Positions 1-27,787 of a stretch of DNA of 32,000 nucleotides are shown here, in pieces. Source of the stretch: an uncultured bacterium (GTDB lineage Bacteria > Auribacterota > JACPWU01); contig CAZXEQ010000001.1 of the NCBI GenBank assembly GCA_964640155.1, forward strand, positions 336,403-368,402, read 5' to 3'. Numbering within the stretch: position 1 is the stretch's first letter; every line of letters begins with the position of its first letter. The notes below the pieces were generated by a model. That model was not told where the DNA came from. It worked only from the letters and a program-made list of their open reading frames with translations, and did not search any database. The position numbers were made by a program, and so were the translations under genes.

Positions 1-1390
1 ACGTTTCTCCAAAAACTGTCTTGATACGAACCCCAAGATCAAATCTACTGAAAGATTCAGGTGGATTGCCGTCATAAAGCAGATCTTCAAAAATGCTTCT
101 AAAACTTTCTGGATGAGGAACCTCTCCTTCATAATAAGGATTCCCTTCTTTATCAACTCTCACTTCACTGGCCCGTAATTTTCTTCCCCCTTCATTTCCC
201 AAAGGTTCAATGCGAAGAGAAAGTCTATAAAGCATAGCCAAAAGTTTCTTAGCTCTTTCTTCTTTTGGAATATTGAAAAACCAATCTTTTAAAGACGTAC
301 GTTCACTTTCATCCACAATTTTTTCTACAACATAAAATGTTCCAAATTTCTTTCCATTTTGCGGCGGAGTTCTCATAACAAACTCCAAAGCCCCTGTTTT
401 TAAATTAATCACCTGATATGCAAGTGTTCCGTCACTTCCCATGAATGAAACAGGAGCATATCCATTTTTGACAAGTTCTGGATAAAGACTCATCAATTCA
501 TCTCTTTCTTCAGACCCTCTCCCTGCCATTGTTTCAAGAGTTGCTTCGACAAGATGTTGCACTTGAAAAGCTCTGTTGCGATCTGGAGTTGGAGTCGAAA
601 GCCAAGCTATTCCCCTACTTAAGCGTGTGGGAGGAGTTACATCCCACCCCTTCTGATAAAAATCTTTAATGCGCTTAGCAACTCTGGCTCGGAAATCATC
701 TTGGAATTGTCTGTTTGATTCAAAAGCTGTTGGAAGAAATCGTCCAATGATTCTTAATTGTTCTCTTCTATCTTCATTTAAGAATCCTGGCAAAACTTCA
801 AAAGATTTTTGAGCAATTTGAGCATCGACGAATTTTAAAAGATCTTCAAGTGAACGACCTGCCACTCCTTTTCCACCACGATAAGCTAGCTCACCACCAA
901 AATTTCCTTGAGCTTGAGCCATCGCCATTTGAATATCTAAAGCCCAAGCCAGAATATGAATCACTCGTTCAAGCGTAAAATCTTCGGAGATCTCTCCTCT
1001 ACCTTTACTTGCTTCAATTTCAGCCCCAAATCTCTGCCGAATATAAATTTCTGTTATTTCATGCCATTCATAAAAGGCCTGCTGATTTTGTGCAGGATCT
1101 TCATGCAAAGCCTTCTTGGAAACAAATACATAATTCACACCTCCCGCTTGTGCAGCAGGAAAATGAAATGCATTTTTAAGTCCTTTTTTTCTTGCTAATT
1201 TTCCAATCGGATCTTTTGTCTTTTCTGAATCATCATAAATCACAAGCTGATAAGAAATTTCTTTCTCTAATACATTTTGTTTTTTAGCTTCCGCTCGGCC
1301 TTGAGCATTTTTTATAAATGCTTGTACATCTTCCTTAGATACTTTCTGATCATTGTCTTGAGGGCCTGGCTCACCAATGTCTTTAAGGCG
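1..1390 (-). repeat. Protein-level super-repeat R3 (partial, truncated by the window edge)
   Basis: LKDIGEPGP ... NAFH (His 1165) ... YEWHEITEIY (His 1063) ... HILAWALDIQMA (958) ... KSFEVLPGFLNEDR ... KKLLAMLYRLSLRIEPLGNEGGRKLRASEVRVDKEGN. Confidence 0.7.
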
Positions 1391-4300
1391 ATTAACGGGA
1401 GTAGACTTAGATTTCTCAACAAGCCTACCCCAAGCATTGGGATCGATTTCCTGCATGAGATCTCTTAATCGTTCTCCAAAAGCTTTACCATTTCTATCCT
1501 CCATAGCAGCTCTAGACGGTTTGAACATTGCATCTAACGGATCAGACGCAAACAATCTTTGTGTACTCATAGATACTCTTTTTAATCTATCAATCGCAAC
1601 CTCTAGTGGTAGTCCTCGAAACGATATTGTTAGCTTAGGGAACAAAATTTCAAGCCGTTTCCAATCCGCCTCACTAAATATATTCCCATCAATATTGTCA
1701 AATCTACCATGATAGTCTGTACTTTCTCTTCCAAATAAAAATTCTAAAACTTTTAAACAAACTAACTCTTTACCGAGATCACTCCATCCCGTAGAATCTT
1801 TATTCGCATCCTCAGCAGATACTGGTTCTCCATCTGAAGTCATTAAGAGACCTCCTATTCCACCGGGTGAAACTCCAACCTTTCCATGGTAAATTTTGGC
1901 CATTAAGCCAATGATTCTTTTAAACTTTTCCTCACGAGAAATCAAAGTATGCTCTCTCAGCCACTTTGCCCAAACTGGGAGTGGCAATTTACATTCAGGG
2001 CCTTCTATATCAATGACAGCTTGAGGATCTAAAGGTAAAAGAGCATCTCTCACAACACCAAAGATTTCTTCAAATTCCGCAGTAGATGCTTGACGAGTCA
2101 AACGATGACCAATCTGTGTGCCATATATGCTCTCAGAGATAAGTTTTTTTATTATAGGATTACTTCCAAAAAAATCTTTTGCTATATCCGGTAACTTGGA
2201 GAATCCTGTCTCAAAATAGACAGACCAAGAATTTGGTTCTCCCAAAAGAGCATAAAGAATTAAAGTGCGATAGAAACGTGAGATTTTCTGAAAAGGTTTA
2301 AGAAAAACAATTTTTTGAGGATTAAGAACGACTAATATTTTTCCACCTTCGTTCTTAAAAGTAATGTCTTTCCATGGGTCAAAATCTGATAAAGAAAATC
2401 CATCTTTAAACAATTTATCGATTTTAAACATCATTGTATAAAGAACTGTTAGAAATGCTTTATTTCTTTCTTCTTTTCCTTGTGTTGAAAGCAACTCTCT
2501 CCATTCTTCAAAAGTCATTACTTTTTCATCTTTAGATTCTTCTTTTTTAGCTTCTGGCAGAGGTTGGACTTTACCTCCCATAGCTTCCATATCCAACAAA
2601 GCTTTAAAATCCAATCTTTCAAGAATTTTTCTGATAGCCACACTAGGATCTTTCAGCTTTTCAGCAGGAGGAAATAGAATTTGTCCCACAAGAGTAATAA
2701 AGTCTTTATCTTCACCATAAATTCCTATGATTTTTTGCTTAAGAACATCATGTGTTACATTTTCTTTTGGCCAAGAATCTCTTGAACCATAGAGTGTTTG
2801 AAAAAGTAATGAACGAAAGGCTTCTGCAAAAATTGCAGAGTTCGAAAATGACATGCCTGTATTTTCTTGGCGAGGAACAATCTTATTGGGGTTAATAATA
2901 AATTGATCTCCATCAAGGCCTCTTAGAATAATAATATCCGTTAGAGGATCAAAATCTGTCAGTTTGTAACCATTCTCATACAAATGATTTCCTTGAAGTA
3001 TGACGGCATAAAGAAGTGTGGTAAATGCTTTTACTTCTTCTTCCTGAGAGCGATGGACAAATTGCCACCAACGTCCAAGCCTCGGTTGGATCTCTATAGA
3101 GTCAGTTTGTAAAACCCCTGTATAATCTTCTCGAAGATCGGGCCCCATTCTCGATGAAACTACTCTTTGATTGATATGACCTGTTGCAATTTCTATGGTT
3201 AAATAAGCATATACATTTGAATGTCCTTGCTCATACATAGATGGAATTTTTTTAAAAATAAGATAGCCCCGTTGAGAGAGCAATGCATGAACTTTTTTAA
3301 GTGCTGAAGATCCTTTTGCCCCTACTCTTTTCATACTTATTAGAGCTGCTTCTAAAAATTTCTCTGTTTGTTTATCTTGATTCTCTTCTTTCGTTGGTTT
3401 ACGTATTTGAGCAAACCATCCAGCAACCCTATTCTCTTCAGGTCTAGTCCCTTCTCGATAATGCCAAGCCAGCCTTTTCGCTAACATTTCCTGTACAAAT
3501 TGCTCAAACTCAATAAATATTTTTCCCACTTCCACTCCAAAACATCGTGTTGCCCAAGCTTCTTGCATGGACCGATCTTCAGTCAACATCTCAAGGGCAA
3601 GATCAAAGGACATATTGTTAATATAAGTTTCCATAAAACTTTTTAGCTCTTCCATAGATCGAGCTTGAGTAGTCATTCCCCGCATGGGAACAGTACCTAC
3701 GTTATATTGAAAAAGCCCAGGATTTCTCGCCATGCGAAGATCATTTGCCCAAGCCAAAATATGAAAGAGACGCTGAGCCGTATATCCCTTGGGCAATTTT
3801 TTAGCTTTTTCTAAAGCATAAACTTCTTCCCCATACTTCATCTCTGCATAAATTTCAGAGAGCTCATGTTGTTCGTAAAGTGGCCGATGAGCTCCCGCAT
3901 TTTTTGAGACAAAAATATAATAAGTTTTCTTAGCAGGATCAGGATTTGGCAAATGAAAGGCATGATTTAGTTTTTTCTCTCTTGCGATTTGTCCGATAGG
4001 ATCTTGTGTTTTTTCATCATTGTCATAGATCACCACTTGAAACTTAATTTCTACTCCATCCACAAGACATGTAGTTTCAGAACCTGCTCGATTTTGAGCC
4101 TCATCTAAAATAATCTTTTGTTCTTTTTCATTTAAACTTGCCCCATTTCCATGGTATGGACCAGGGTCTTTAAAAGCACCAACGCCTTTTTTCCCCAACA
4201 CTCTCCCAATCAAGCCACTAAACCAACCTGATGAGCTTGACGAACTACCCGAAGTTGTTGGCTCAGGAGGAAGAGATGTGTTGCTATGCACCTGAACCCT

Positions 4301-5722
4301 ATGTTCTGGATCTAGTTCATCGAGCACTCTAAGCAACGATCCTATTTGTGAGAAATAAAGAGGATTTTTAATGGAATCGTCAAATAATTGAACATCGAAA
4401 ATCAATCTTAGAAAATTATCAAAACCGGGAGTCACCTTAAAAAGACGAGCTGCTTGCGCCTGAATTTCAGAAAAAGAAGGATAGTTAGAATGAAATCTCT
4501 CTCCATACAAGGCCCATAATATTAAAGCAGGTAAAGCATTCTGAACAATAGGAGTAAATTCTCCTATAGCGGTTTTATCTTTTGAGCCACGGATGATTTT
4601 CTTTTCCATAATACTAAAAACGATTTTTCCGCCCCGCTCTTCAAAGATGATATCTGTCAACGGATCAAAATCTTGGGATAATTGATACCCGCGTCCTCTT
4701 AATGATTCATCTTCCCTTGCCAACCAATAACAAAGAATGATTAAGAATAGTCCTCTTTGTTTAGGGTCCACAGGCAAAGATGCCCACCACTGACCAAACG
4801 AATTAATTTCACCTACTACATCATCTTCTTCATGAGCAATGTGAATATTTATCTCATTCTTAGTCATTGTTGCTTCAATAACTTTACCTGACTCTAAATC
4901 CATCACCTGATAAATACAGGAATCATTTTCCTCATTGCGGGGAGATACTTGCTTAATAATGGCAAAACCTTGTTCAAGAAATTTGGGAAAAGCTTTTTCA
5001 ACTTTTCCTGCCTCCCTTGAACCAAATTTTTTAGCACTAGCGGTAGCTTTCGCTTTAAATCTCTTGAGCTGTTCTTCTTTTTTTAACTCTTTCTCCCTTC
5101 TATAGTGCTCAACCATTCTTGCTTCAGCCATTTTGATGACTTCACTGTTAAACTCATCGAGCAAAAAAAGTTCATCTCCCATAACATTTTTAGAAAGCTC
5201 ACTTTGATGGAATCTGTCCTCGAGTAATATCTCTAATGCATCGTCAAAAGACATTGTTCCTATTTTTTCTTGCATAAATCGCTTTAAAGCAGCTAAATCT
5301 TGTGCTTGAACAGACATCTTTCTATAAGCAGTAGCTCCTGTACCTTGAGAACTCCCGAAAAGTTCAGGATGTGCAGCCATTCGAACATCATTGGCCCAAG
5401 CTAGAATATGTTTGATCCTCGTCCATGTAAATTCTTTGGGATAGTCTAAATGGCCTTGTTCAAGTAAAGTTTTCAACCATGCAAATTTTATATCAATAAA
5501 AATTTCTGAAAGTTCATGCTGTTCGCAAAGGCCTTGATTGCTGGCATTATCAGAAACGAATACATAATAAGTTCCATCATCATCTTGCAAATGAAAAGCG
5601 TTCTCTAACTTTTCATCCGCAGCTAAATTCCCAATAGTAGGTTCTTTTGCTTTCTTCTCATTTTCATTAAACGCAACTAAGTAATACTCAATAATCTGAC
5701 CATCTATAATGCGTGATCTCAT
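1..5722 (-). CDS. Giant repeat protein, part 2 (second ORF or continuation of part 1), 3-prime partial, at least 1907 codons from ATG 5722
   Basis: The same minus frame stays open from 5860 to position 2 (1953 codons, no in-phase tta/cta/tca on the + strand). First canonical starts after the TGA are TTG 5749 and ATG 5722 (MRSRIIDGQIIEYYLVAFNENE...). The ORF runs off the left edge, ending ...FSRFDLGVRIKTVFGET at position 2. It contains three paralogous super-repeats. The start codon is uncertain. Confidence 0.7.
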   Translation of the reverse strand, partial: MRSRIIDGQIIEYYLVAFNENEKKAKEPTIGNLAADEKLENAFHLQDDDGTYYVFVSDNASNQGLCEQHELSEIFIDIKFAWLKTLLEQGHLDYPKEFTWTRIKHILAWANDVRMAAHPELFGSSQGTGATAYRKMSVQAQDLAALKRFMQEKIGTMSFDDALEILLEDRFHQSELSKNVMGDELFLLDEFNSEVIKMAEARMVEHYRREKELKKEEQLKRFKAKATASAKKFGSREAGKVEKAFPKFLEQGFAIIKQVSPRNEENDSCIYQVMDLESGKVIEATMTKNEINIHIAHEEDDVVGEINSFGQWWASLPVDPKQRGLFLIILCYWLAREDESLRGRGYQLSQDFDPLTDIIFEERGGKIVFSIMEKKIIRGSKDKTAIGEFTPIVQNALPALILWALYGERFHSNYPSFSEIQAQAARLFKVTPGFDNFLRLIFDVQLFDDSIKNPLYFSQIGSLLRVLDELDPEHRVQVHSNTSLPPEPTTSGSSSSSSGWFSGLIGRVLGKKGVGAFKDPGPYHGNGASLNEKEQKIILDEAQNRAGSETTCLVDGVEIKFQVVIYDNDEKTQDPIGQIAREKKLNHAFHLPNPDPAKKTYYIFVSKNAGAHRPLYEQHELSEIYAEMKYGEEVYALEKAKKLPKGYTAQRLFHILAWANDLRMARNPGLFQYNVGTVPMRGMTTQARSMEELKSFMETYINNMSFDLALEMLTEDRSMQEAWATRCFGVEVGKIFIEFEQFVQEMLAKRLAWHYREGTRPEENRVAGWFAQIRKPTKEENQDKQTEKFLEAALISMKRVGAKGSSALKKVHALLSQRGYLIFKKIPSMYEQGHSNVYAYLTIEIATGHINQRVVSSRMGPDLREDYTGVLQTDSIEIQPRLGRWWQFVHRSQEEEVKAFTTLLYAVILQGNHLYENGYKLTDFDPLTDIIILRGLDGDQFIINPNKIVPRQENTGMSFSNSAIFAEAFRSLLFQTLYGSRDSWPKENVTHDVLKQKIIGIYGEDKDFITLVGQILFPPAEKLKDPSVAIRKILERLDFKALLDMEAMGGKVQPLPEAKKEESKDEKVMTFEEWRELLSTQGKEERNKAFLTVLYTMMFKIDKLFKDGFSLSDFDPWKDITFKNEGGKILVVLNPQKIVFLKPFQKISRFYRTLILYALLGEPNSWSVYFETGFSKLPDIAKDFFGSNPIIKKLISESIYGTQIGHRLTRQASTAEFEEIFGVVRDALLPLDPQAVIDIEGPECKLPLPVWAKWLREHTLISREEKFKRIIGLMAKIYHGKVGVSPGGIGGLLMTSDGEPVSAEDANKDSTGWSDLGKELVCLKVLEFLFGRESTDYHGRFDNIDGNIFSEADWKRLEILFPKLTISFRGLPLEVAIDRLKRVSMSTQRLFASDPLDAMFKPSRAAMEDRNGKAFGERLRDLMQEIDPNAWGRLVEKSKSTPVNRLKDIGEPGPQDNDQKVSKEDVQAFIKNAQGRAEAKKQNVLEKEISYQLVIYDDSEKTKDPIGKLARKKGLKNAFHFPAAQAGGVNYVFVSKKALHEDPAQNQQAFYEWHEITEIYIRQRFGAEIEASKGRGEISEDFTLERVIHILAWALDIQMAMAQAQGNFGGELAYRGGKGVAGRSLEDLLKFVDAQIAQKSFEVLPGFLNEDRREQLRIIGRFLPTAFESNRQFQDDFRARVAKRIKDFYQKGWDVTPPTRLSRGIAWLSTPTPDRNRAFQVQHLVEATLETMAGRGSEERDELMSLYPELVKNGYAPVSFMGSDGTLAYQVINLKTGALEFVMRTPPQNGKKFGTFYVVEKIVDESERTSLKDWFFNIPKEERAKKLLAMLYRLSLRIEPLGNEGGRKLRASEVRVDKEGNPYYEGEVPHPESFRSIFEDLLYDGNPPESFSRFDLGVRIKTVFGET
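1391..4180 (-). repeat. Protein-level super-repeat R2 (about 930 aa): X-domain plus two degenerate kinase-like modules plus tail
   Basis: VGAFKDPGPY (4183-4154) ... NAFH (His 3955) ... EQHELSEIY (His 3868) ... HILAWANDLRMA (3763) ... MSFDLALEMLTEDR ... YKLTDFDPLTDIIIL (2956-2945) ... FSLSDFDPWKDITF (2386-2375). Confidence 0.75.
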
Positions 5723-5823
5723 TTCCTTCTTTGAGGAAGCTTTGGCCAATTTAATAAACTGCTGTTTCTGGGCATCTTTTAAAACCTTTTCCCCACGATA
5801 AGCACCTGGATTTTTTAAAGCAC
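4181..5823 (-). repeat. Protein-level super-repeat R1 (about 548 aa): X-domain plus degenerate kinase-like module
   Basis: VGALKNPGAY ... NAFH (His 5593) ... EQHELSEIF (His 5518) ... HILAWANDVRMA (5410) ... MSFDDALEILLEDR ... YQLSQDFDPLTDIIF (4672-4661). Paralogous to R2 and R3 at the same relative positions. Confidence 0.75.
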
Positions 5824-5860
5824 CCACTGGTTCTGGTTGAGGAGTTGACTGGCGAGCCCC

Positions 5861-8800
5861 TTCAAGCAATGTTCGAAGGAGTGGGATCAATGATTCAAGC
5901 ATTTGATTCTCCTTAATCGCTTGCATAAGAGGGCCATCTAAAGCAAAAGGATCAGAGTCAATATGGGTATCAAAATAGATCGAAGATCCTTCAACACTAT
6001 ATAATTTTTTGCCAGTTATTAATTTATATAAAAGAACTCCCACTGAAAAAAGATCGGATGTCCCATAACTTTGCCTCTCTGCTAATTTAGCCATTCCAAA
6101 ATCAATCAAAGCTACTTCATCTATCTCATCATCATATAAAATATTAGCTGGTTTAATATCACTGTGAAAAACTCCAGCCTGATTGGCTAATTGAACAATT
6201 TTAAAAATCCTTCGAAATAAACGATCGACTTGAGAAACGTTTTCAGAAGTCCAGTTCTTAGAAGTTGATCTTCTTAAAGATTCATATAATTTGCTTCTTG
6301 TAATATCTTTTCCCTTAACTTCCATTGCAATGAAATAACCGAAAGAAGAATCTCCTTCTGCATAGTATTTTGGGATACCTTCTTGAACTTTTTGAAGCAT
6401 AACAGCATCATTCCTTACATGTTGATCATGTTCTCTTGATTTAGAAATCTTTAAGGCAATCCGCTTTCCTGTCTGGAAATTTCCTGTCGTTAAATCAATA
6501 GCATCCCAAACTGTAGCAAAAGCCCCACTTCCTAGCTGATTCACAACATAGTATTTACCTGCAACAATCACTCCAGATTGAACTTGCACTACATCTCCTT
6601 GCCCTCGTGTAATATTCGCCAGAAACTGAATTTTTTGATCTAATTTACTTTTGGGATCTAATACATTCACAAAAACGGTCGATAAATCACTATGCCCACC
6701 TAAAATGCCATCCAAAACTTCATCTGCTAAGGCTGCAGCATAGGCTTCAGGTATAGCTGCCACACGGCGATAGATTCCACCTGGCATATAAACGGCATTA
6801 CGACGGGTACCTGTATGAAGATCCCAATGACGGTTATGACCTTCATAGCCTAGGAAATCCAGATTATTGAGAACAACTACAGTGGCTTTTTCCAAGCGAT
6901 ATTCGAAAAATTGAAGAAGGCTTTCTGCATCAATTTTATCTAAAGATTCTTTAGTTCCAGGATAAGTTTCTCTAAAATTTTTATAGTCCTCTACTAAGGC
7001 AAGGTAGGACTGACGTTTCTTTTCTCGTATTTTTGGATCTTTGTCTTTGCTTTCTCGTAACTCTGAAATACTCTCACGAACTAAATTAAGGCGAGTTTCA
7101 ATTTCCTTAAACAAATCTTCTCTTTTCTCTCTAAGAACGGTTTGGGCATTTATAAAATATTCATCATCTTTAGGATCTTCCGTTCTAAAAAACGCTTGAT
7201 CCCCTTCTAACATTCTTTGCTCACCATGTACGACCGTTACCGCTTTATTATTTCCTTTGGTCTGACTCTGTATGCGATAATCAATTCTTTCTTCACGATA
7301 ATCATCCATTCCCACGCGATGAGCTTTGGCTGTTGTAACTGTTTCACTTGTGTCTTTCTTTATTTTGTCTGTTAACATTATAGAAAATGCTTTTGCAATT
7401 TCTCCAGCAACTGAATCTTTATATTTTTCTTCATCATAAACATAATCTCCTCTAAGTTGGTCGAGCTTCTCTTGATCATTTTTCTCTATACATTCTTGAA
7501 TGTACCTTTGAACACGAAGTGGAATAAATTCTTGTCCTCCTGACAAACTCCATCGGATAAAAGCTTCTACTCCATCTACCATTTCAGGATGAACAAAAGT
7601 GAGTCTTTCATCTAACCAAACAGGGGTTTCTCCTTTCTCATATTGCTCTCCCAACTCATGCGCCATCAAAGAAAGTATTTCTTCTGCCTGTGCTTCTCCA
7701 GAGAAACTTTTGATCTTTTCATAATGAGTTTGATTAATAATCACATGTACAATGCCATTTTTCGTCTGGACTTGCCGTGTCGCCTGAACATCTTTGTGAA
7801 GTTTATTGGAAGTGTGAACTTTAACTGTTCCTGATTGGAGAGCTACTTGTAATGCTTTTAAAAGCTCTCGATATTTTTCATGTCTATCTTTTCCATAGGA
7901 AGGAGGTGGTGCTCGATCCTCTAAAATTAATTCAGAATCTGATGTACTTACAATTTTTTCAATATACTTCTCCATCAAAACCACAACCTCTTGTGGTATT
8001 TCAAGCAACGGTTCATTCGTTAAGTCAATCGGCTTACCCGTCGCAGGATCTTTCGGAACCGCATGGTCATCCCCACGAGAACCCACAACTTTAGCCGCCA
8101 TACCAGCAATCTGCTCAACCTGAGACTGTACTCCTCTGTCATTTTGATTTTGAAAACCACTCGCAGGAGAAACAGTACTCACCTCTAAAACACGTGTTGG
8201 CAAAGGCAAAACTGGGATATTTCTAGGATGCTGATAAGGCCCTCCTTGTACTTGTATTTGTAAAGGCGTCTGCACGGTATTTGATATATGAAGATGAGGG
8301 AATGCTCTTTGTATTCTTTCAGGGGTTATTCCTACAAGAATCGTCATGTCATTAAAAATCATTGGAGGGACTCCTACCCCCTCTATCATAGTTGGTGCAT
8401 TCATCCGAGCTTCTGCTTGAAATAGTGTTCCAAATAATACAGATTGATGAGGCCTATGACTGGATTGCAGCGCAGATAAAAAATATCCACTAGCAGACTG
8501 GTCAAAACTACTGACAGAAACAGTGGTTGGAGGCATACCATTTTGCAACAATTGCATTTGTGTAGTTTGAGTAACCAATTGTCCATTAAAGTTATAAGAA
8601 AAACATGAATCATTAATAAAAACAACTTCTTCTAAATCTCCTCTGGCAACCAAGGCTCGTGCCATTTCTTCAGGACTAATATCCGTTTCATCATCAAGCG
8701 CTAATAGCTGAGGCAAGCCATGTCCATTAAAGTAAATAGTGAGGGGTCCTCTGGAATTTCTAATCTCACTTAAAGCTGCTTGCTTATCTTGCCCTCCCTG

Positions 8801-11800
8801 GAAGGGGCGAGAAATAAGGTCTGGTGAAACACCCGAATCTATTTCTAACTCTGTAATTTCAGATGGATCAAATTCTTGTCCTGCTGCAAAAATATTAATC
8901 ACTCTTCTGCCAGGACCAAAAACAACTCTTTGAGATAATCGTCTCCTCTCTTCAGAAATAAGATGAACAACCCTTCCAATATTTTCGGATGTTATTTCAA
9001 TGTTATATCTCCTGAGAAGCCGATAAGCACACAGTGCTATCGAATGTTGACTTTCAATAGACATGTTTCGCGTTATATTTCTAAATGCAGTATCTAAATA
9101 GATTTGATAATGAGGGAGAGGATGATGTACTGCATCTTCAGGCAGAGAAAGTGCTGCTTGGGCTGGAGAAGAAGGTCGTATTAAATTTGCATTTAACTGT
9201 TGAATTCTGCGAAGCGCATGGGCGATAGGAATACAAGCACTTCCTGGAGTATATTCCCTTGTCAGAACTGTTTCTAATGCTACAACTAGACTTGATTGGA
9301 TAAGATCTGGTCTTATTTCACAAAACCTCTCTATTAGCCGTGTGATTTGGCCAATAGCAGATGTATAAATCCTTCCATCAGATGTGTTATCTGGTAAATA
9401 TCGGTTTAAGAATCTCTCAAGAATTGCAATGTCATTTGCTTGAAACAGTTCTGGACGAGTCCTTCCAAAAGAGCCTAGAAGAAAGACGCCTGCATTTGCA
9501 TAAACTCCATCTTCTTGATTTGGTAAAGTAAAAATGGTCATCATAGAGCGAAATAGACTGGGCGTAAGCCAGGCTTGAGGGATAGCTCCCTCCCGAACTG
9601 AATATCTAAAAAACCTTGGAATCATTGCTAACACTTCTAATGCTCTTTTCCTAAGCATATGAGGAACAAAGGCAGAACTCGTATTTTGAATAAATCGCTG
9701 CAATCGAAGCATATCTTCTTCTCTAAAATTCTCTGCCCCACCTCTAACTGCATCTCTTCCTTCAACGTCCACTCTCCTAGCAATATCACCAAGCAAAGTC
9801 ATTCCTCTATGATATTCCTCCCCGTCTTGTTGTGAAATTTCTCCTGAGGATTGAATTGCAATAGAAGGTCTAAAACAAGCGCCTAAAGACAAAATTAATG
9901 CCATCCACCATGACGAAAGAAATCCAACACGAGGAGGTCGAGGCAATACACGAGATCTATCCTGTTCAGATTGTTTTTTAACCCACACTTGAGCCAACTC
10001 CACAAGCCCAGGTTGATTTTCACCATAACGTTGGATAAGGTCTTGTGTAATCTCCGCAGCATCACTTGTTGTTCCTCTTAACTCCTCAAGTTCTGCAAAA
10101 AATTGTGTAACGATGGTATTGGGATGTGCTGTTTTGAGGGATTCAATTAAACGGTCTATATCTTCTAGCTTTAATTTCTCGAATGCTTTAGCCCAATCAT
10201 TCAATGTATTTCTGATTACGCCTTGTGCACTCATCCACATACTTACAAGAATTTCTTCATCCTTTTGTGTGTATTCTTCACCTGCTATAATTTTTTTGAT
10301 GGTTCCACAGAAAGCTGCAGGTATGAGTGTCCATTTCCCATCTTCTGTTCTTTCATGACTTGCTAGTTTTTTCTGAGAAAATTCTATATTTTCAAAGTCA
10401 TAAGGACCTTGCATGCGTTTTTCATAAATATTTTCATCTACTTTGCCATGCATGTTGGGGATCACAACTGCATAAGATATTCCCTTTTCGTCTAAAATTT
10501 TTTCAATGCCTTCGGTGTGAAAGCCACCGGTTACTAAAACTGTAGTTCGTATCTCGTAATTCGTATTTCGTAAAACCACTTGTTCTTCTATACTTCCTGC
10601 TTCCTGTCTCCTGCTTCGTGCGTCTATTTGCTTTAACGCATTTTCCGCCATAACTCGGTCTCGAGCCAAGGCTAGATCATAAAAGTGAAGCGATTCCTGG
10701 ATGAGGAAGCTGATATTGTTCGAGCTTGTATAAGCACCTTCCTGCTGAGCACTTCTCGACTTCGCTTCGCTGCGCTCGAAGAATATGAGTGGTTTCTGCC
10801 CAATATCAATACTGTTCGAGCCTAGTCGAGAACTCATATATTTTTTTATATTCTCCAGCCCACTTCTCGTCGCTTTCAGCGCTATCAAATCCTTAATCAA
10901 TCCCCACTCTCTTACCATACGTTCTTCTTGAATTACGTTGTGGGCTTTTGAAAGCTCTAGCATCAAAGTATTGATCTTTTGCTCTAGCTCTTCATAGATA
11001 GATTCTGATTTAAGATCTTCTTGATGCAGCTGAAGCTTGTAGTAATGAGAAAGTCCTGGATAGTTTTCTTCTAAGGATAATCCATTTTTTTCATAAGCCT
11101 CTTTCAAATGAGTCAAATATTCCAATATTCCCATTCGACCTAATCGATATTCCAAACTCCATTTCACTATTGTTTTAAGTTCTTCATTTTTGAGCCGATG
11201 ACTTAATTCATCTAAAAGCTTTTTCAAGTCCGATTGAATTGTTTCACTTTGTATGGCTTTAGAAGTTTTAAAAATTTCGAGCATTTGCTCTAAACTCCCA
11301 TCCAGCTTTTGCCCATGCTTTTGTAGTAAGACCTTTAATTGCATTAATGCTTCGTCTAATTTTAGCTCTCCTTCTTTAAGTTGATTTTGAAGGTTTAAAA
11401 GCTCTTTCATTTCTTTAGTGTAGTTCTTTTCTATGATGTTTTTGATTTGTTCATCAATTTTGTTTATTTCAGAAGAAAGTTCTTTGGACAGTCTACGTAC
11501 TTTTAAAAAAGATTTTAAATTCTCAATATAAAGATCTCTCTTTTCTACTCCGTACAGGTCAAGCGAGTCCTGAAACCCTGAACGCAATGCCGCATATTCA
11601 GCTCCGGTGAGATATCCCTCTTTTAGAAATTGCAAGCCTACTTTGTCTCGAACTTTATGATCTGGAAAAGCCTTCAAAAGTTCTAAATCAAATTCCCCTT
11701 CTGCTCCTTCCATAAAAACATCTTTGAGGCCAAGTTTCTGCTGAAATACTTCCAAAGTTTTAGCAATGTTGATTTGGGCTTCTTCCTGACAATGCAAATC

Positions 11801-12049
11801 CTGAATGAGAATGATTAGAGAATCTTTCTTCTCTCCTTCTTTGATTTTGGAAAGGGTAGCACCTGAAAGCTTCAACTGTTTCAGTTGATCTAAAACTGAG
11901 AGGTTTTTAAGTGTAGATGATGATGAAGCCGCTGAAGAAAGAACCTCTGCCATCGATTGATGGTCTGGGAAAATACAAACAAGAGAGAAAATAAAGACGA
12001 AAACAATCCGACATAATTTTAATAAGCAAGCGTTCATTAATCTGGACAT
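5861..12049 (-). CDS. Giant multidomain protein, part 1 (2062 codons, ATG 12049 to in-frame TGA 5863-5861): signal anchor, coiled-coil-rich region, internal TM, caspase-like module, Ser/Thr kinase-like domain
   Basis: Hand scan of the minus frame whose codon first base is 1 mod 3. Upstream stop is TAA 12064-12062, first ATG is 12049 (second ATG 12037), and there is no stop until TGA 5863-5861. Translation starts MSRLMNACLLKLCRIVFVFIFSLVCIFPDHQSMAEV. AAGGA abuts ATG 12049 and lies 12 nt before ATG 12037, so the exact start is uncertain. Kinase and caspase-like motifs are in frame (separate entries). Absent from the supplied ORF track. Confidence 0.8.
5890..6560 (-). other. Hanks-type Ser/Thr protein-kinase-like domain
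   Basis: YYVVNQLGSGAFATVW (G-loop, 6532-6506), KRIALK (Lys codon 6451-6449), VFHSDIKPANIL (6166-6137), LIDFG (DFG 6103-6095), SDLFSVGVLLYKLITG. The HxD Asp and the DFG Asp are 19 residues apart. There is no APE motif and only about 12 residues between DFG and the DxFSxG helix. Confidence 0.8.
8560..8935 (-). other. Clan-CD (caspase/legumain-like) cysteine-peptidase-like module
   Basis: Hydrophobic strand RRVINIFAAG, then PLTIYFNGHG (His codon 8722-8720). 39 residues later comes EEVVFINDSCFS (Cys codon 8605-8603). A hydrophobic strand followed by His-Gly, then about 40 aa, then a hydrophobic strand followed by Cys, is the clan CD catalytic-dyad layout. Confidence 0.45.
9872..9928 (-). other. 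Predicted internal transmembrane helix of the giant protein (about aa 708-726)
   Basis: RSRVLPRPPR followed by a 19-residue hydrophobic segment VGFLSSWWMALILSLGACF, then RPSIAIQSSGE. Confidence 0.45.
10545..10620. repeat. Two imperfect tandem heptamer arrays inside the giant ORF
   Basis: 10545-10572 reads GTTCGTA TCTCGTA ATTCGTA TTTCGTA. 10593-10620 reads CTTCCTG CTTCCTG TCTCCTG CTTCGTG. On the minus strand they are translated as ...RSRRQEAGSIEEQVVLRNTNYEIRTT... Confidence 0.7.
11945..12049 (-). other. N-terminal signal peptide or signal-anchor of the giant protein
   Basis: Basic n-region (MSRLMNACLLKLCR) followed by a hydrophobic run IVFVFIFSLVCIF, then PDHQSMA-EV. Confidence 0.5.
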
Positions 12050-12084
12050 TCCTTGTTGTTTTTAAAGCGGCAAGTTCAGCCTAT

Positions 12085-12113
12085 AGAATATCACAAAATG
12101 AGGGGAAAATCAA
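12085..12113 (-). promoter_or_regulatory. Candidate sigma-70 promoter with extended -10 for the giant gene
   Basis: Minus strand reads TTGATT (12113-12108), a 17-nt spacer ending in TGa, then TATTCT (12090-12085), about 35 nt upstream of ATG 12049 in the 198-nt AT-rich gap after comF. Motif match only. Confidence 0.3.
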
Positions 12114-12247
12114 GGCGTCCAGATATAAATATTCATAATATGTTCTCTTGGAATATATTATATTAAATATTTATTCTTTAATTTGTCTTAACGAAACGGG
12201 AGATTATTGCACAATATGTTGGAGAAGAATAAGTTGTAGATTTTATA

Positions 12248-13003
12248 TCACATGCTTCTAGCCAAAGTAAGTACTGTGACAGAAATTGCGCCTGCACTTT
12301 TAAGAACTTTAGCACACTCTTGAGCCGTTGCTTCTGTGGTCAATACATCGTCCACAAGGAGAACTCTTTTATCTCGAATTTTATGAGGAGAGTTAACGAC
12401 AAAACTATTCTGAATATTCTCCATACGCTCTCTTTTATCTTGAAGAGTCTGACCTGCAGAATATTTCACTCGTTTTAAAACAGTTGGAAGAAGAGGTATT
12501 TTCTGTTTTTTATAAAGCGTTTGAGCCAAAAACAGAGACTGATTAAATCCCCTCTCTTTGAGTTTCAAAGGATGAAGCGGAACAGGCACAATACAATCAA
12601 ACTCATTCCAGGGGATATCTCTTCCAGAAACACTTCCAAAAATCATTTGAAGTGTAGGAGCAAGATATTCCTCTCTTGCATATTTAAACGACTGAAGAAG
12701 CTCCTTAATCACACCTGCATAAAGCGCCACTGAAAAACATTCATCAAAAAACCGTTTATCTCTTAAACAACTAGGGCAAAGCCCCCGCTCTTCTGAACCA
12801 TCAAAACCAGGTAAAAATTTTGCACATCCTCGACAAGCTTGATTCGGAAGAAAACTAATTTTTTGAAAACAAATCTCACAAATGAGAAACCTATTTTCAT
12901 GCGGCATTTTGGCATCACAAGTGCGACAATGTCTTGGGAAAAGAAGATCTGAAAAAATCCAAGAAATTTGAAGAATATTTTGACTTAAAGAGGTGTTTCT
13001 CAT
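12248..13003 (-). CDS. comF: ComF-family protein / amidophosphoribosyltransferase-like
   Basis: N-terminal Cys pairs (CRTCDA...CEICFQ, CRGCAK...CPSC) and a C-terminal PRTase motif VLLVDDVLTTEATAQECAKVLKSAG. Confidence 0.8.
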   Translation of the reverse strand: MRNTSLSQNILQISWIFSDLLFPRHCRTCDAKMPHENRFLICEICFQKISFLPNQACRGCAKFLPGFDGSEERGLCPSCLRDKRFFDECFSVALYAGVIKELLQSFKYAREEYLAPTLQMIFGSVSGRDIPWNEFDCIVPVPLHPLKLKERGFNQSLFLAQTLYKKQKIPLLPTVLKRVKYSAGQTLQDKRERMENIQNSFVVNSPHKIRDKRVLLVDDVLTTEATAQECAKVLKSAGAISVTVLTLARSM

Positions 13004-15350: not shown

Positions 15351-17830
<2,480 letters not shown>

Positions 17831-22451: not shown

Positions 22452-23564
22452 CTATTTTGCTCTAAAATGATTTTTCATCTTAAACAATTTTTTTCTCACC
22501 AAAATGCTTAAAATAGAAAGACTGGATCCAAAAATCAGCCAAAAAAGAGAACGAGGAAGCCACTCCGAAAAAACTTCAAAAAATCTTGTATATAAATCAA
22601 TCACTAAAAAGACAACTCCAAAATTAAAAAACAATCTTCTTTCCTGCCTTATTCCTAACCACATAAAAAAAATACATATCCCAGTCATCAAAACAATAAA
22701 CCAAATAGGACTGATGTCGGGCCCTTTACTCCAAACCCACTCATGATCAAAGTTATAGCCCCAAATGGATAGAATCAATAGTGCATTAAACAGAGTTATA
22801 CATCCCACAACTTCAAAGGGTTGCTTTAAATAGGCCTTCCCATACCTGCCCACCCAATGCCCTATACAAATGAATAACCCTCCAATGGGTAAAAAGAGGA
22901 GAGGATCTTTCATATAGAGCCAATAACAACCCATTCCATAACCTGTTGCGCCTCCTAACCAATTTAAAAGTCCAAATAAACCTACATACATGAGGGTTTT
23001 AAAACTTTTTTGATAGCTGACACACAAAGTTATAAATGAAAACACGCATAGCGAAGAGCGAACCATATCCTGATGGAACAACCAAACAGGAATTGAAAAA
23101 ATAGTGTAGGCTAAGATAATTAAAGAAAGAATCAATAAACCTTTGGCATTTACTTCTTTCTTTTGTCTATACATTAGGGAAAAAGAAGCCACCGTTAATA
23201 AACTCATGAATATTGACTTTACCCATCCAGGGGAATTCAAAAGAAGGTAAAATATTTTTCTGATAAATCCGAAGTTAAAATATTTCCAAATTTGATAATC
23301 TGAAACAAAAAAACTTATTCCTGTCACCACTGCTACAATTCCAAACCATTCCAAATTCTTCTTCCAACGTTTCAGTTTAATTTCTTGCTGCTTTAACTCA
23401 ATCAACTCTTCAATGCGATTAACCTGGCTTGCGTAATATTTCTTAATTTCTTGAACATCTTGCATACGCAAAGAAATATTTTCAAAGTCGCTCACCATAA
23501 ATTGATACTGGATCAACTTTTTCTTTAATTCTTTAAGCTTTAGGTTTTGAAATTCTATGTTCAT
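22452..23564 (-). CDS. Polytopic membrane protein with an N-terminal coiled-coil, function unknown
   Basis: About 75 aa of heptad-like charged sequence (QNLKLKELKKKLIQYQ...IEELIELKQQEIKLKRWKK), then roughly 9-10 hydrophobic segments. The ORF track starts at GTG 23582. I prefer ATG 23564, which has GGAGGA 10 nt upstream. Confidence 0.7.
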   Translation of the reverse strand: MNIEFQNLKLKELKKKLIQYQFMVSDFENISLRMQDVQEIKKYYASQVNRIEELIELKQQEIKLKRWKKNLEWFGIVAVVTGISFFVSDYQIWKYFNFGFIRKIFYLLLNSPGWVKSIFMSLLTVASFSLMYRQKKEVNAKGLLILSLIILAYTIFSIPVWLFHQDMVRSSLCVFSFITLCVSYQKSFKTLMYVGLFGLLNWLGGATGYGMGCYWLYMKDPLLFLPIGGLFICIGHWVGRYGKAYLKQPFEVVGCITLFNALLILSIWGYNFDHEWVWSKGPDISPIWFIVLMTGICIFFMWLGIRQERRLFFNFGVVFLVIDLYTRFFEVFSEWLPRSLFWLIFGSSLSILSILVRKKLFKMKNHFRAK

Positions 23565-23627
23565 AAGGATTGTATCCTCCACATCAAAATATTTAGACTC
23601 TCATAGCAGAGTTTAGAATAAATTTAT

Positions 23628-24350
23628 TTACATCGAAAATTTTTCGCCCAGATAAAGCTGACGAGCTTCGGGGTCATTGGCAAGAAATTCAGAGGTTCCG
23701 GACTTCAAAACTTTTCCTTCATAAATTAAATAAGTTCTGTCTGTTACTGTCAAAGTTTCACGCACATTGTGATCAGTAAGAAGAATCCCTAATCCTTTTT
23801 CCCTAAGGCTCTTTAGAATCTCTTGAACATCTAAAACAGCAATAGGATCTACTCCTGAAAAAGGTTCGTCCAACATCAAAAAGGAAGGCCGTGTCACCAA
23901 AGCACGGGTGATTTCAAGACGACGTCTTTCTCCACCTGAAAGGGTGTAAGCTTTATGAGTTGCTAGATTGGTAAGCTGCAGTTCTTTTAAAAGCTCTTCC
24001 AATCTTTTATCTCTCTCTGCTCGGCTTAACGAAAGCATTTCAAGAACAGCTAAAATATTTTCCTCGACAGTCAATTTTCTAAAAATGGAAGGTTCCTGAG
24101 CCAAATATCCCATGCCCAATCTTGCTCGAGTCGCCATAGGAATAGAAGTTACATCCTGCCCCTTAAAAAAAACTTTCCCAGAATCTGCTTTAACAAGACC
24201 CACAATCATATAAAAAGAAGTGGTTTTACCTGCCCCATTGGGACCTAATAACCCCACAATCTCTCCTTCTTGAACGTGTATGCCTACTTCATTCACCACA
24301 CGTCTACGATGATAAGATTTTACTAAGTTTTCTGTGCGTAATAATTGCAT
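23628..24350 (-). CDS. lptB: LPS export ABC transporter ATP-binding protein LptB
   Basis: Walker A GPNGAGKTT, signature LSGGERRRLEI, Walker B FLMLDEPF, 240 aa, directly downstream of lptC-lptA. Confidence 0.9.
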   Translation of the reverse strand: MQLLRTENLVKSYHRRRVVNEVGIHVQEGEIVGLLGPNGAGKTTSFYMIVGLVKADSGKVFFKGQDVTSIPMATRARLGMGYLAQEPSIFRKLTVEENILAVLEMLSLSRAERDKRLEELLKELQLTNLATHKAYTLSGGERRRLEITRALVTRPSFLMLDEPFSGVDPIAVLDVQEILKSLREKGLGILLTDHNVRETLTVTDRTYLIYEGKVLKSGTSEFLANDPEARQLYLGEKFSM

Positions 24351-24364
24351 TTAAATACCGTATT

Positions 24365-24868
24365 TTAAAGCCATTCCTTGTTTAAATCATTCTGACCCGA
24401 AGAATAAATCATTAATTTTGCACTAGGCTCAATCAACATTCGATTGTCATCTCTAAAAAAAGTAATCTTTTCCCCAGCCAAAACATCCCGATCTCTTTTG
24501 ACCATAGGTTGACCTGTCAAAACAATCTTACCATCTTTGACGGTGTAAACCGCTTGATTCGATTTTGCAGTTTTATCTTCTTTCCTAAATCGGACATTTC
24601 CTGTCGCCACTACTTTTTCAATATTTTTTTCTTTAGGCTCAAAATAAACAGTCATCAAATCAGCATTCATTTTCATGCGAGGATCTTCCACCGTCACATC
24701 ATTATGAAAGACAGCAACGTTCTTTTCATAATCCATGTCTAATTTTCCTTTGCATGTAATTTCAGTCTGAGGATTTACTTTATTTTCTTTAGGTAAAGAA
24801 GCTGCTGTAGCAAAAACCTGAAAAAGTAAAATCAGCAAACACCCTGTTCCATATGTGAATAATTTCAT
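24365..24868 (-). CDS. lptA: LptA-like periplasmic LPS transport protein (OstA N-terminal fold)
   Basis: Signal peptide MKLFTYGTGCLLILLFQVFATAAS and a beta-rich OstA-like body. ATG 24868 overlaps the lptC TGA as ATGA. Position between lptC and lptB. Confidence 0.7.
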   Translation of the reverse strand: MKLFTYGTGCLLILLFQVFATAASLPKENKVNPQTEITCKGKLDMDYEKNVAVFHNDVTVEDPRMKMNADLMTVYFEPKEKNIEKVVATGNVRFRKEDKTAKSNQAVYTVKDGKIVLTGQPMVKRDRDVLAGEKITFFRDDNRMLIEPSAKLMIYSSGQNDLNKEWL

Positions 24869-25323
24869 TTTGCCCCTACCATTTGCCACTGTTTTGATTC
24901 GTCCATACTCAAAGACATCTTCACATCACTTAAAATAGAAACCTGTTTTTGCTCTGTTTTCCAACGCAACCCTTTTCCTGTAATCTTTGAACTTCCACGA
25001 ATAATCTCAACTCTTCCTTCTGTCCAGACATCTTTGGTGAGTTTATTCATCCTGGCCCATTCAGCCTTAATAAAATATTCTGGCTTAGAACCATTGTAAA
25101 CAACCGCCCGTGCAGGAGTAATCTCTATAATTTTTTTGGAAATAAATTTGGCCTTATCACCTTCAACCTTCCATCTCTTTTGATCTGATAAACCCGGCGA
25201 AACAAATCGAAAGCCTCCTGTAATTTCATCTCTGATTGTTTTTGCATATAAAAAAGATGTGAAAGGGAATAAGAAAATTCCATCCAAAACTAAACAAACA
25301 ATAACCCAGCGTCCTATACTCAT
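24865..25323 (-). CDS. lptC: LptC-like inner-membrane-anchored LPS transport protein
   Basis: Single N-terminal TM (WVIVCLVLDGIFLFPFTSFLY), a small beta-rich periplasmic domain, and the conserved kdsC-lptC-lptA-lptB order. Confidence 0.65.
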   Translation of the reverse strand: MSIGRWVIVCLVLDGIFLFPFTSFLYAKTIRDEITGGFRFVSPGLSDQKRWKVEGDKAKFISKKIIEITPARAVVYNGSKPEYFIKAEWARMNKLTKDVWTEGRVEIIRGSSKITGKGLRWKTEQKQVSILSDVKMSLSMDESKQWQMVGAK

Positions 25324-25335
25324 AAAATCTATTCC

Positions 25336-25875
25336 TTACGCTTTCGCGTAATCTTCGACCAATTTATGCCAACTGCCTTGAGCCTTCATAACCATCTCAA
25401 TCACCTCACGCACCGCACCTCGACCTCCTAAGTGCTGGGTCACATAAGAAGATATTTTTTTAACTTCAGGCGCAGCATTTTGAACAGCAATCGCTAGCCC
25501 CGCCCTTTTCAAAGCGGGGATATCCACCAAATCATCCCCGATATAACAAACTTCCCGAGAATGAAGTTTAAAATCTTTTAAAATATTCTCGAAAGACTCT
25601 GCTTTGTTCATTTTTTTCTGATAGAGGGCATCTATTCCTAATTCTTTTGCCCTTGAAGCTAATGCCTTCGAGCCCCGAGCACTGATCCATGCAATTTTAA
25701 GACCCATACGTTTTGCAGAGGTAATAGCCAATCCATCCGCAGAATAAAAAGCTTTTATCTCTTCACCTTTTTGATCCAAGAAAATGGTTCCATCGGTTAA
25801 AACACCATCCACGTCCATGACAATGGCTTTAATAGACTGTAAAGTGGATGATATTTTTTTGGAAGATTGTTTCAT
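25336..25875 (-). CDS. kdsC: 3-deoxy-D-manno-octulosonate 8-phosphate phosphatase (HAD-IIIA)
   Basis: IVMDVDGVLTDG (HAD motif I), GDDLVDIP, 179 aa, located next to kdsD. Confidence 0.85.
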   Translation of the reverse strand: MKQSSKKISSTLQSIKAIVMDVDGVLTDGTIFLDQKGEEIKAFYSADGLAITSAKRMGLKIAWISARGSKALASRAKELGIDALYQKKMNKAESFENILKDFKLHSREVCYIGDDLVDIPALKRAGLAIAVQNAAPEVKKISSYVTQHLGGRGAVREVIEMVMKAQGSWHKLVEDYAKA

Positions 25876-25879
25876 AGTC

Positions 25880-25922
25880 AGAGTTAAGGGTTAAGGGCTA
25901 TTAACTCTTAGCCCATAGCCCT
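25880..25922. other. Intercistronic hairpin element built from duplicated heptamers (kdsD-kdsC spacer)
   Basis: AGAGTTAA (25880-25887) pairs with TTAACTCT (25901-25908). The element contains GTTAAGG GTTAAGG (25883-25896) and TAGCCCA TAGCCCT (25909-25922). GGGCTA (25895-25900) can alternatively pair with either TAGCCC copy. Confidence 0.5.
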
Positions 25923-25926
25923 GTTT

Positions 25927-26910: not shown

Positions 26911-26912
26911 TT

Positions 26913-27785: not shown

Positions 27786-27787
27786 AT

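Follow-up and report, generated by a model that had tools for sequence, protein, structure and literature searches.

A 5,549-residue predicted protein in an uncultured Auribacterota bacterium: a giant gene with a kinase domain, divergent repeats and a possible role as an exported effector

The stretch analysed here, 32,000 nucleotides (nt) of contig CAZXEQ010000001.1 (assembly GCA_964640155.1, positions 336,403 to 368,402) from an uncultured bacterium of the Auribacterota lineage JACPWU01, is referred to below as the window. At its left end it carries one real, intact chromosomal gene of giant size, which is read on the minus strand and runs out of the window before its stop codon. The full-length product of 5,549 amino acids (aa) combines a Sec-type signal peptide, an N-terminal module with TIKI-like motifs (N-module), a long segment almost free of lysine, a Hanks-type kinase domain and large divergent repeats, each of which opens with a ~230-aa domain that is called here the HE domain. 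The reading that is favoured, with a probability of about 0.45, is that this protein may be a Sec-targeted, exported multi-enzyme effector acting at the cell envelope or in another (host or prey) cell. Giant genes are already known from uncultured bacteria, and the gene described here is an unusual new example. What appears to be undescribed, however, is the recurrent pairing of the N-module with HE domains (in two proteins together with a kinase), as well as the HE domain and the lysine desert.

The open reading frame and its full length

According to an independent translation of all minus-strand frames, the frame whose codons have their first base at 1 mod 3 contains no stop from 12061 to 2, a run of 4,020 codons. 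Its upstream bound is the TAA at 12064-12062, and the first ATG, at 12049, leaves 4,016 codons inside the window (2-12049, minus strand). An earlier interpretation made from the letters alone (the sequence-only reading) had described this frame as open down to position 2 except for a single TGA at 5863-5861, and had spoken of one or more genes. The open frame is confirmed with no extra in-frame stop, but the supposed TGA is in fact a GAA codon, and the locus therefore holds one uninterrupted open reading frame (ORF) and one gene, not two. The absence of the frame from the ORF track, also remarked on at that time, has a technical cause, since the lister drops every ORF that continues past the end of the source; for positions 1-12100 it shows only one ORF of 111 aa.

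Given that 5.4% of the minus-strand triplets are stops, the probability of 4,020 stop-free codons is ~1e-97. Codon usage supports the same conclusion. When the codon usage of 15 neighbouring genes is taken as the reference, the giant frame scores from +0.14 to +0.36 bits/codon, with a coding signal present in each 500-codon block, in comparison with 0.31 bits/codon for the neighbours themselves and negative values for the other two frames of the locus. The GC content at the three codon positions (GC1, GC2 and GC3) is also like that of the neighbours. An alternative genetic code was considered and rejected, since the frame contains no TGA, TAA or TAG and code 11 gives normal translations of the neighbouring genes.

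The full-length product, designated P0011, is present in public NCBI data as an unnamed prediction and was recovered by an exhaustive profile search with the internal repeats. Its residues 1-4016 are identical to the window translation. The NCBI contig from which P0011 is recorded has the same length (620,977 bp) as the one recorded for MetK, PyrG, PtsI and LptG of the window. The gene is 16.65 kb long; the window holds the first 72% of it (codons 1-4016 of 5,549), and its final 1,533 codons are situated to the left of the window, in agreement with the earlier claim that the C-terminus falls outside. Scans of genomes and metagenomes with aa 3417-4016 gave no match extending the gene past the window.

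Modules of the giant protein and their relatives

In searches of Pfam, NCBIfam, PADLOC and PDB, the combination of modules has no match apart from the kinase. With the kinase as the sole library match and only three real relatives of the repeats (see below), the earlier impression that the combination corresponds to no described family holds. The kinase domain, which had been recognised from the sequence as well, covers aa ~1826-2050 (5900-6574, minus strand) and matches Pfam Pkinase (PF00069) with an E-value of 1.2e-18 and a score of 67.9 bits (cut-off 31.7), the alignment joining aa 1834-1994 to profile positions 2-152 of 263. Kinases in PDB are matched with E-values as low as 3e-10, and kinase models of NCBIfam and PADLOC are matched too. 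The ATP- and Mg-binding residues are complete, comprising the Gly-loop GSGAFATV, K1867 (within IALK), HSD1964IKPAN and D1983FG; because Ser replaces Arg in HSD1964, the kinase is of the non-RD kind. The distance from DFG to subdomain IX ('SDLFSVG') is just 12 residues, and thus the activation segment, the P+1 loop and the APE motif are essentially missing. The C-lobe helices past subdomain IX appear to be present. In the kinase of the relative P0012, described below, there are ~35 more residues between DLG and 'DLF', with a normal activation segment and APE.

Minimal bacterial kinases are known in the form of NleH/OspG-type effector kinases, and some Hanks kinases have no activation loop. The giant's kinase is similar to the NleH/OspG type in its intact Gly-loop, Lys, HxD and DFG combined with a nearly absent activation segment. 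There is, however, no specific sequence relationship to that type, the best matches being generic eukaryote-like kinases and kinases of the PknA/PknB type. Assignment to anti-phage defence was rejected as well, as the PADLOC matches to PD-T4-6, PglW and Mad6 reflect a generic kinase and are far under full-length scores.

Three large divergent repeats, also noticed in the sequence-only reading, were found in the window by tile-against-tile BLASTP (25-45% identity, E down to 3e-28). The units are ~550-930 aa long, and all are encoded on the minus strand. Repeat R1 (aa 2074-2621; 4187-5830) consists of an HE domain at aa 2074-2301 and a subsequent alpha/beta region with 'DFDPLTDII'. Repeat R2 (aa 2622-3550; 1400-4186) has its HE domain at aa 2622-2850 and contains the 'DFDP' sub-module twice (at ~aa 3032 and 3222), followed by an insert of ~300 aa. 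Repeat R3 (aa 3551-4016 and on; 2-1399), with an HE domain at aa 3551-3778, runs past the window.

In an alignment of seven HE copies from four proteins, the invariant columns are F, H-E-x-x-E, R-x-x-H-x-x-x-W and F, the motif residues in R1 being H2178-E-x-x-E2182 and R2211-x-x-H2214-x-x-x-W2218. An AlphaFold2 (AF2) model of the R1 HE domain, with a predicted local distance difference test score (pLDDT) of 75-88, shows a small beta-sheet followed directly by the helix that bears HExxE, and puts the His on a helix further along. The modelled strand/helix order resembles that of zincins, and of gluzincins in particular. Zincins, however, are defined by HExxH, whereas the fifth position of the HE motif is Glu rather than His and the downstream RxxHxxxW is invariant; the HE domain may at best work like a zincin and is not classed as one here.

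One more HExxE motif, 'AHELGE' at aa 1464 (region aa ~1430-1500; 7550-7762, minus strand), follows a hydrophobic strand and lies ahead of the kinase, where P0012 has its first HE domain. Neither this motif nor a similar one at aa 4257, outside the window, was accepted as an HE domain, as both are unsupported by the HE profile and stay at motif level. As for the C-terminal part of P0011 beyond the window (aa 4017-5549), it is Pfam-dark. It contains two ~190-aa units with 'E[VL]ERHRWRSENNY' (aa 4675-4867 and 5261-5453); between them lie four repeats of ~100 aa with 'GVQFFKR...VWAF..Q...VA.IFGF.L'.

Among 1.84 billion cluster representatives, the repeat profile finds five proteins, namely P0011 itself, P0012, P0014, P0015 and one spurious low-complexity match. 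The three real relatives belong to Chlamydiota (P0012), Elusimicrobiota (P0015) and one other source (P0014). The closest architectural relative is P0012 (MBI1884639.1, 'serine/threonine protein kinase [Chlamydiae bacterium]', 2,688 aa), which is collinear with the giant: a signal peptide is followed by the N-module, an HE domain, a Hanks kinase and another HE domain, with no other hydrophobic segment. In comparison with the giant, P0012 is 20-28% identical and half as long, and it lacks the second hydrophobic segment, the lysine desert and the clan-CD-like dyad region described below. P0014 has a signal peptide and an HE domain, again with no other hydrophobic segment, and P0015, a 5,896-aa protein from an Elusimicrobia metagenome-assembled genome (MAG), has the N-module, an HE domain and many transmembrane segments. 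The N-module and the HE domain thus occur together in three proteins of different phyla (P0011, P0012 and P0015), two of which, P0011 and P0012, also have the kinase.

The signal peptide of the giant (aa 1-34; 11948-12049, minus strand) has a Kyte-Doolittle (KD) hydropathy of 2.54, in line with the N-terminal signal or anchor proposed earlier, and is conserved in the stand-alone relative P0001. It shows a basic n-region (R3, K11 and R14) and a 13-residue hydrophobic core at aa 15-27; the likely signal-peptidase I site, read by eye, falls between PDHQSMA and the E that follows. Signal-peptide-like N-termini are also present in P0012, P0014, P0015, P0016, P0018 and P0020, and in most members of the N-module family.

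The N-module (aa 56-545; 10415-11884, minus strand) is modelled by AF2 with pLDDT 80-90 as five beta-strands with flanking helices, a putative alpha/beta core of the TIKI/TraB/ChaN/erythromycin-esterase kind. Its candidate catalytic residues are D84-x-H86, E114 (28 residues past H86) and H511. The acid, the Glu and the distal His (GGxH) are kept in all family members inspected, and the first His is replaced by Arg in P0001. The same His-to-Glu spacing of 28 is found in RRSP (H3902/E3930), an effector module of a giant MARTX toxin, and in Bcr135 (H85/E113) (PMC6254334). The only recurrent Pfam signal of the family is PF04187 (ChaN/Tiki), which matches 4 of the 9 members (best E 5.8e-4, ~19 bits against a cut-off of 27.7) and gives no match to the window protein itself. 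The acid-x-His, the Glu at +28, the distal 'GGxH' and the weak recurrent PF04187 signal are shared with the superfamily, and the modelled core of parallel strands with flanking helices may be. Points of difference are the sub-cut-off scores, the Asp in place of the first Glu of the 2His/2Glu motif, and the large helical insert (~280 aa) that splits the core. Searched against PDB, the N-module profile returns no TIKI-family member but just EF-hand noise in the helical insert, and no structural match was obtained because the Foldseek list is swamped by helical-repeat matches.

The N-module family has at least 10 proteins, from MAGs of Omnitrophota, Auribacterota (Ca. Theseobacter), Chlamydiota, Elusimicrobiota and others, so the link to giant ORFs of uncultured lineages drawn in the sequence-only reading is apt. 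In other MAGs, N-module genes are fused to or located beside giant Pfam-dark ORFs; the neighbour ORFs encode 11,155 aa (Omnitrophica), >2,648 aa (Auribacterota) and 3,769 aa (a JGI metagenome). The Auribacterota neighbour (locus L084) contains the giant's C-terminal ~190-aa unit (E 4e-6). Such adjacency is observed in loci L003 (1-9641), L084 (7770-15715) and L085 (1-7874 and 10205-14551), and in L085 a second N-module gene comes after the first. P0001 itself (locus L002, 834-3269; GCA_041906985.1, JAYRID010000360.1) has 811 aa and is 71% identical to the first ~700 residues of the giant, after which it has a strong transmembrane segment and a ~60-aa Pro-rich, Lys-free tail. Since the His of its TIKI motif is changed to Arg (RDLRC), P0001 may be inactive. 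Its gene is located among HicAB and AbiEii toxin-antitoxin genes and adjoins a Lactamase_B-fold gene.

The second hydrophobic segment of the giant, aa 708-726 (VGFLSSWWMALILSLGACF; 9872-9928, minus strand), has a KD value of 1.71, barely over the cut-off of 1.6, and is a marginal transmembrane or stop-transfer candidate. Thus, the second transmembrane segment of the sequence-only reading exists as a segment, although its hydrophobicity is marginal. The counterpart in P0001 is strongly hydrophobic (KD 2.96). Four Arg are found just ahead of aa 708-726 and almost no positive charge behind it, which is the reverse of the positive-inside rule.

The lysine desert extends over aa 693-1320 (8090-9973, minus strand) and contains 3 Lys and 55 Arg in 628 residues, in comparison with a Lys content of 8.0% outside it (binomial P = 3.8e-19). 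The Arg share is ~9%, 65% of the Arg codons are AGA or AGG, which are one step from AAA and AAG, and the GC content equals 0.40 versus 0.375 elsewhere. The enrichment in AGA/AGG at a nearly unchanged GC content argues for selection on the protein rather than on base composition. None of the relatives has a Lys-free stretch of comparable scale; in P0001, 96 aa from just before the transmembrane segment to the C-terminus are also Lys-free.

Inside the desert, AF2 predicts a HEAT/ARM-like helical-repeat solenoid of consecutive helix pairs (aa ~740-1038; 8936-9832, minus strand; pLDDT 55-80), for which the top Foldseek matches in PDB, all weak, are CAND1, karyopherins and separase (E 1.5e-3 to 4e-2). 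It is followed by a candidate clan-CD (legumain/caspase-like) dyad, H1110/C1149 (8576-8743, minus strand). At the level of motifs, LTIYFNGH1110G and VVFINDSC1149 each place the putative catalytic residue at the end of a hydrophobic strand, with a helix in between and a His-Cys spacing of 39 residues. The region aligns with positions 111-170 of 258 of Pfam Peptidase_C13, which we take to be the part holding the catalytic dyad, with E-values of 0.0044-0.06 and 13-17 bits against a cut-off of 22.8. The AF2 secondary structure is compatible with strand-helix-strand, at pLDDT <50. A PDB sequence search with the lysine-desert region gave nothing meaningful, and the searches run found no homologues of its protease-like part.

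Topology, proposed function and alternatives

If the giant protein is an exported effector, it would leave the cytoplasm through Sec and act at the envelope or inside another cell. The N-module would then cut or process proteins, possibly including the giant itself, as would the candidate clan-CD protease, and the minimal kinase would phosphorylate targets wherever ATP is available. The HE domains could be metal-dependent hydrolases in which the second zincin His has become Glu and the downstream His serves as the third ligand. The lysine desert might shield the protease-bearing segment from lysine-directed attack, i.e. from host ubiquitin-type tagging or Lys-specific proteolysis, and the closest working analogy would be an autoprocessing multi-effector toxin of the MARTX type. 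The main support for the effector reading comes from the predicted topology of P0012 and P0014. In both, the signal peptide is the sole hydrophobic segment, and therefore their HE domains, together with the kinase of P0012, should be on the exported side. The marginal character of aa 708-726, its reversed flanking charges, the lysine desert and the MARTX precedent also fit an effector.

Several results weigh against the effector reading. If aa 708-726 is a true stop-transfer segment, as the comparison with P0001 would have it, ~4,800 residues including the ATP-requiring kinase are cytoplasmic and the reading fails. With respect to an export route after Sec, neither a two-partner secretion (TPS) domain nor an obvious C-terminal barrel nor a type I secretion system (T1SS) signal was identified in the protein, nor was an outer-membrane secretion partner, the downstream genes being outside the window. 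As for the proposed enzymatic activities, the TIKI-type assignment of the N-module stays at motif level, below the curated cut-off. Likewise, of the caspase-like dyad proposed in the sequence-only reading, the His/Cys motif 'YFNGHG...INDSC' is present, but a clan-CD protease at H1110/C1149 is unproven, the Peptidase_C13 score being sub-threshold. The HE domain matches nothing in Pfam, NCBIfam or the PDB sequences, its Foldseek search against PDB is empty, and a word-indexed search with the HE-domain alignment gives no match. Regarding the second half of the repeats ('DFDPLTDII'), all Foldseek matches are kinases, but they are weak (best E 9e-3, TM-score ~0.3), and profile-profile comparison of the DFDP sub-modules with the giant's real kinase is negative (0.2%). 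The term 'pseudokinase' for these halves was therefore rejected, as the structural matches are unbacked by the profile-profile comparison and deserve a tentative note at most.

The main alternative, which is plausible but somewhat less probable than export, is that the protein is a type I membrane receptor or scaffold, with the N-module as a periplasmic sensor or hydrolase, aa 708-726 across the inner membrane and ~4,800 residues in the cytoplasm. A signal peptide with a single downstream hydrophobic segment is the default for such a topology, and P0001, a paralogue or orthologue, has its strong transmembrane segment at the same place. In the giant, however, this segment is marginal (KD 1.71) and its flanking charges are opposite to the positive-inside rule. 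A kinase with complete ATP- and Mg-binding residues needs ATP, which agrees with a cytoplasmic position; the kinase and HE domains of P0012 and P0014, in contrast, stand behind a signal peptide with no transmembrane segment. Omnitrophota giants have been described as anchored in the inner membrane with their bulk on the cytoplasmic face (Nielsen & Lui 2026, bioRxiv 10.64898/2026.06.07.730766), which also favours the type I topology, although a cytoplasmic site gives no ready reason for the lysine desert. The original guess of a 'membrane-anchored signalling or effector megaprotein' was broad enough to cover both the effector and the type I scaffold.

It is unlikely that the protein is better described as a self-processing polyprotein, in which the clan-CD-like domain would be a Lys-specific protease that cuts the precursor into modules and spares its own near-Lys-free 628-aa segment. 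The desert does coincide with the candidate His1110/Cys1149 and retains Arg at 9%, and clan CD includes both the Lys-specific gingipain K and the autoprocessing cysteine protease domain (CPD) of MARTX toxins. The protease match, however, reaches 17 bits at best against 22.8, the AF2 model of the region has pLDDT <50, and no homologue of the region was found. Besides, the desert is much longer than a ~250-aa protease domain and spans the solenoid too. Self-cleavage by an N-terminal peptidase has been proposed for Omnitrophota giants (West-Roberts et al. 2023, bioRxiv 10.1101/2023.11.21.568195), which lends the polyprotein idea a precedent.

The boldest extension of the effector reading is doubtful as well. 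It would make the giant the prototype of an undescribed class of Sec-exported, self-processing multi-effectors distributed over the PVC group, Elusimicrobiota and Omnitrophota. In such a class, a TIKI-type protease would lead, a Lys-free clan-CD cassette would release the modules, and the minimal kinase and a new HExxE...RxxHxxxW metallohydrolase fold, present in 3-4 copies, would act inside another cell, with the desert as a protection against eukaryotic ubiquitin-type tagging.

Finally, it is most improbable that the frame is an artefact (the remains of a pseudogene, non-coding DNA or a chimera made in assembly that happens to be open): an independent short-read assembly does break at the 5' end of the giant gene (Logan SRR8893623_25415, ~300 bp after comF), but against this stand the chance of ~1e-97 for so many stop-free codons, the uniform host-like codon usage, the lack in window 1-12100 of long DNA repeats able to cause mis-joining, the prediction of an identical 5,549-aa product from an NCBI contig of 620,977 bp, and domain-level conservation along the protein with relatives of other phyla.

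Known giant systems, genomic setting and significance

The giants of Omnitrophota reported in the literature have 10,000-147,000 aa; 80% of them are singletons at the sequence level and ~15% lack any Pfam match (West-Roberts et al. 2023, bioRxiv 10.1101/2023.11.21.568195; Nielsen & Lui 2026, bioRxiv 10.64898/2026.06.07.730766). Catalogues of giants apply a length cut-off of 10,000 aa, or 30,000 aa in the case of West-Roberts et al., and the protein described here, with 5,549 aa, is below the lower of these values. It resembles the Omnitrophota giants in being the product of a very long single ORF of an uncultured Gram-negative lineage, mostly Pfam-dark and sequence-unique, with an N-terminal signal peptide or transmembrane segment, a peptidase-like domain nearby, and divergent internal repeats with no nucleotide-level tandem repeats. 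A further link is provided by the N-module relatives in Omnitrophota MAGs, one of which is next to the 11,155-aa ORF. Unlike the Omnitrophota giants, the protein has no Pfam match to dockerin, to SecA-DEAD, to the peptidases C39 and S8 or to sugar-metabolism domains. The peptidase-like module at its N-terminus resembles TIKI rather than C39 or S8, and it has one marginal transmembrane segment (two hydrophobic segments in all) in place of many.

MARTX toxins carry a clan-CD cysteine protease that releases their modules. They are similar to the giant in their size (3,500-5,300 aa) and in the modular combination of several enzymatic units, and RRSP, a TIKI-superfamily endopeptidase, has the 2His/2Glu motif with the 28-residue His-to-Glu spacing (PMC6254334). 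The giant, however, has neither RTX nor glycine-rich repeats and shows no homology to the MARTX repeats, CPD (C80) or RRSP in Pfam and NCBIfam. In addition, it carries a Sec signal at the N-terminus and not a T1SS signal at the C-terminus, its candidate clan-CD domain is nearer to C13 than to C80, and its TIKI-like module, with the helical insert, is located at the extreme N-terminus. By none of the defining features is the protein a MARTX toxin, and the comparison is to be taken as an analogy.

Upstream of the giant gene lies a gene of the ComF family, whose product combines a double zinc ribbon with a phosphoribosyltransferase domain (12248-13003, minus strand; Pfam DZR_2 5.5e-9 and Pribosyltran 5.9e-7), and the two are separated by an AT-rich gap of 198 nt (12050-12247; 29% GC versus 38% in the window). 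Both the comF-like neighbour and the AT-rich gap had been pointed out in the sequence-only reading. The giant gene probably has a promoter of its own in this gap; a promoter scan of it found no minus-strand site above threshold, and the window as a whole, the gap included, contains no Rfam match that attains the gathering score. The 33.5-kb Logan contig SRR8893623_25415 (locus L001) ends ~300 bp past comF, at the 5' end of the giant gene.

The neighbours are ordinary Gram-negative chromosomal genes, among them the comF-like gene, lptF/G, ahcY, metK, genes for EI, HPr and HprK of the phosphotransferase system (PTS), hpf, lptB/A/C, kdsC/D/A, pyrG, kdsB and a pfkB-family kinase gene. A co-directional block for 3-deoxy-D-manno-octulosonate (Kdo) synthesis and lipopolysaccharide (LPS) transport occupies 23628-30168 on the minus strand and comprises kdsB, pyrG, kdsA, kdsD, a kdsC-like HAD gene, lptC, lptA and lptB; the pairing of kdsB with pyrG also occurs in Chlamydia, which may hint at the taxonomic position of the organism. 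PyrG is 57-64% identical to sequences from Verrucomicrobiota, Nitrospinota, Planctomycetota and Omnitrophota alike and does not tie the host to Omnitrophota or to any other single phylum; a position near the PVC group or Omnitrophota was considered probable. Between lptB and hpf there is a 376-aa ORF (22452-23582, minus strand) with no Pfam match at 1e-3 and a weak match to TMEM43 (E 0.0097), in the position usually occupied by rpoN (sigma-54) in the lptCAB-rpoN-hpf-ptsN/hprK cluster. The longest ahcY ORF (15351-16715) overlaps the end of metK (16631-17830) by 85 nt (16631-16715), and the ahcY product in the Logan gene call has 427 aa rather than 454 aa, which suggests that the true ahcY start is probably a downstream codon. 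On the plus strand, GC skew is negative in every 1-kb bin of window 1-32000 (cumulative value −5.4), which matches the location of nearly all genes on the minus strand.

ORF tracks routinely omit giant bacterial genes and short-read assemblies routinely fragment them; the products of such genes are among the least understood proteins. The gene described here reveals a recurrent cross-phylum architecture, in which a TIKI-like N-module is combined with HE domains and, in two cases, with a Hanks kinase. A second contribution is the repeated domain, whose invariant motif resembles a metal site and which has no relatives in Pfam, NCBIfam or PDB; a third is a lysine desert of 628 residues that demands a specific selective explanation. 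The fusion of the N-module to large dark ORFs, or its adjacency to them, points to a role of this module in processing or export. If the effector reading is true, the giant protein would be a delivery device of toxin-like design, made by lineages living on or inside other cells.

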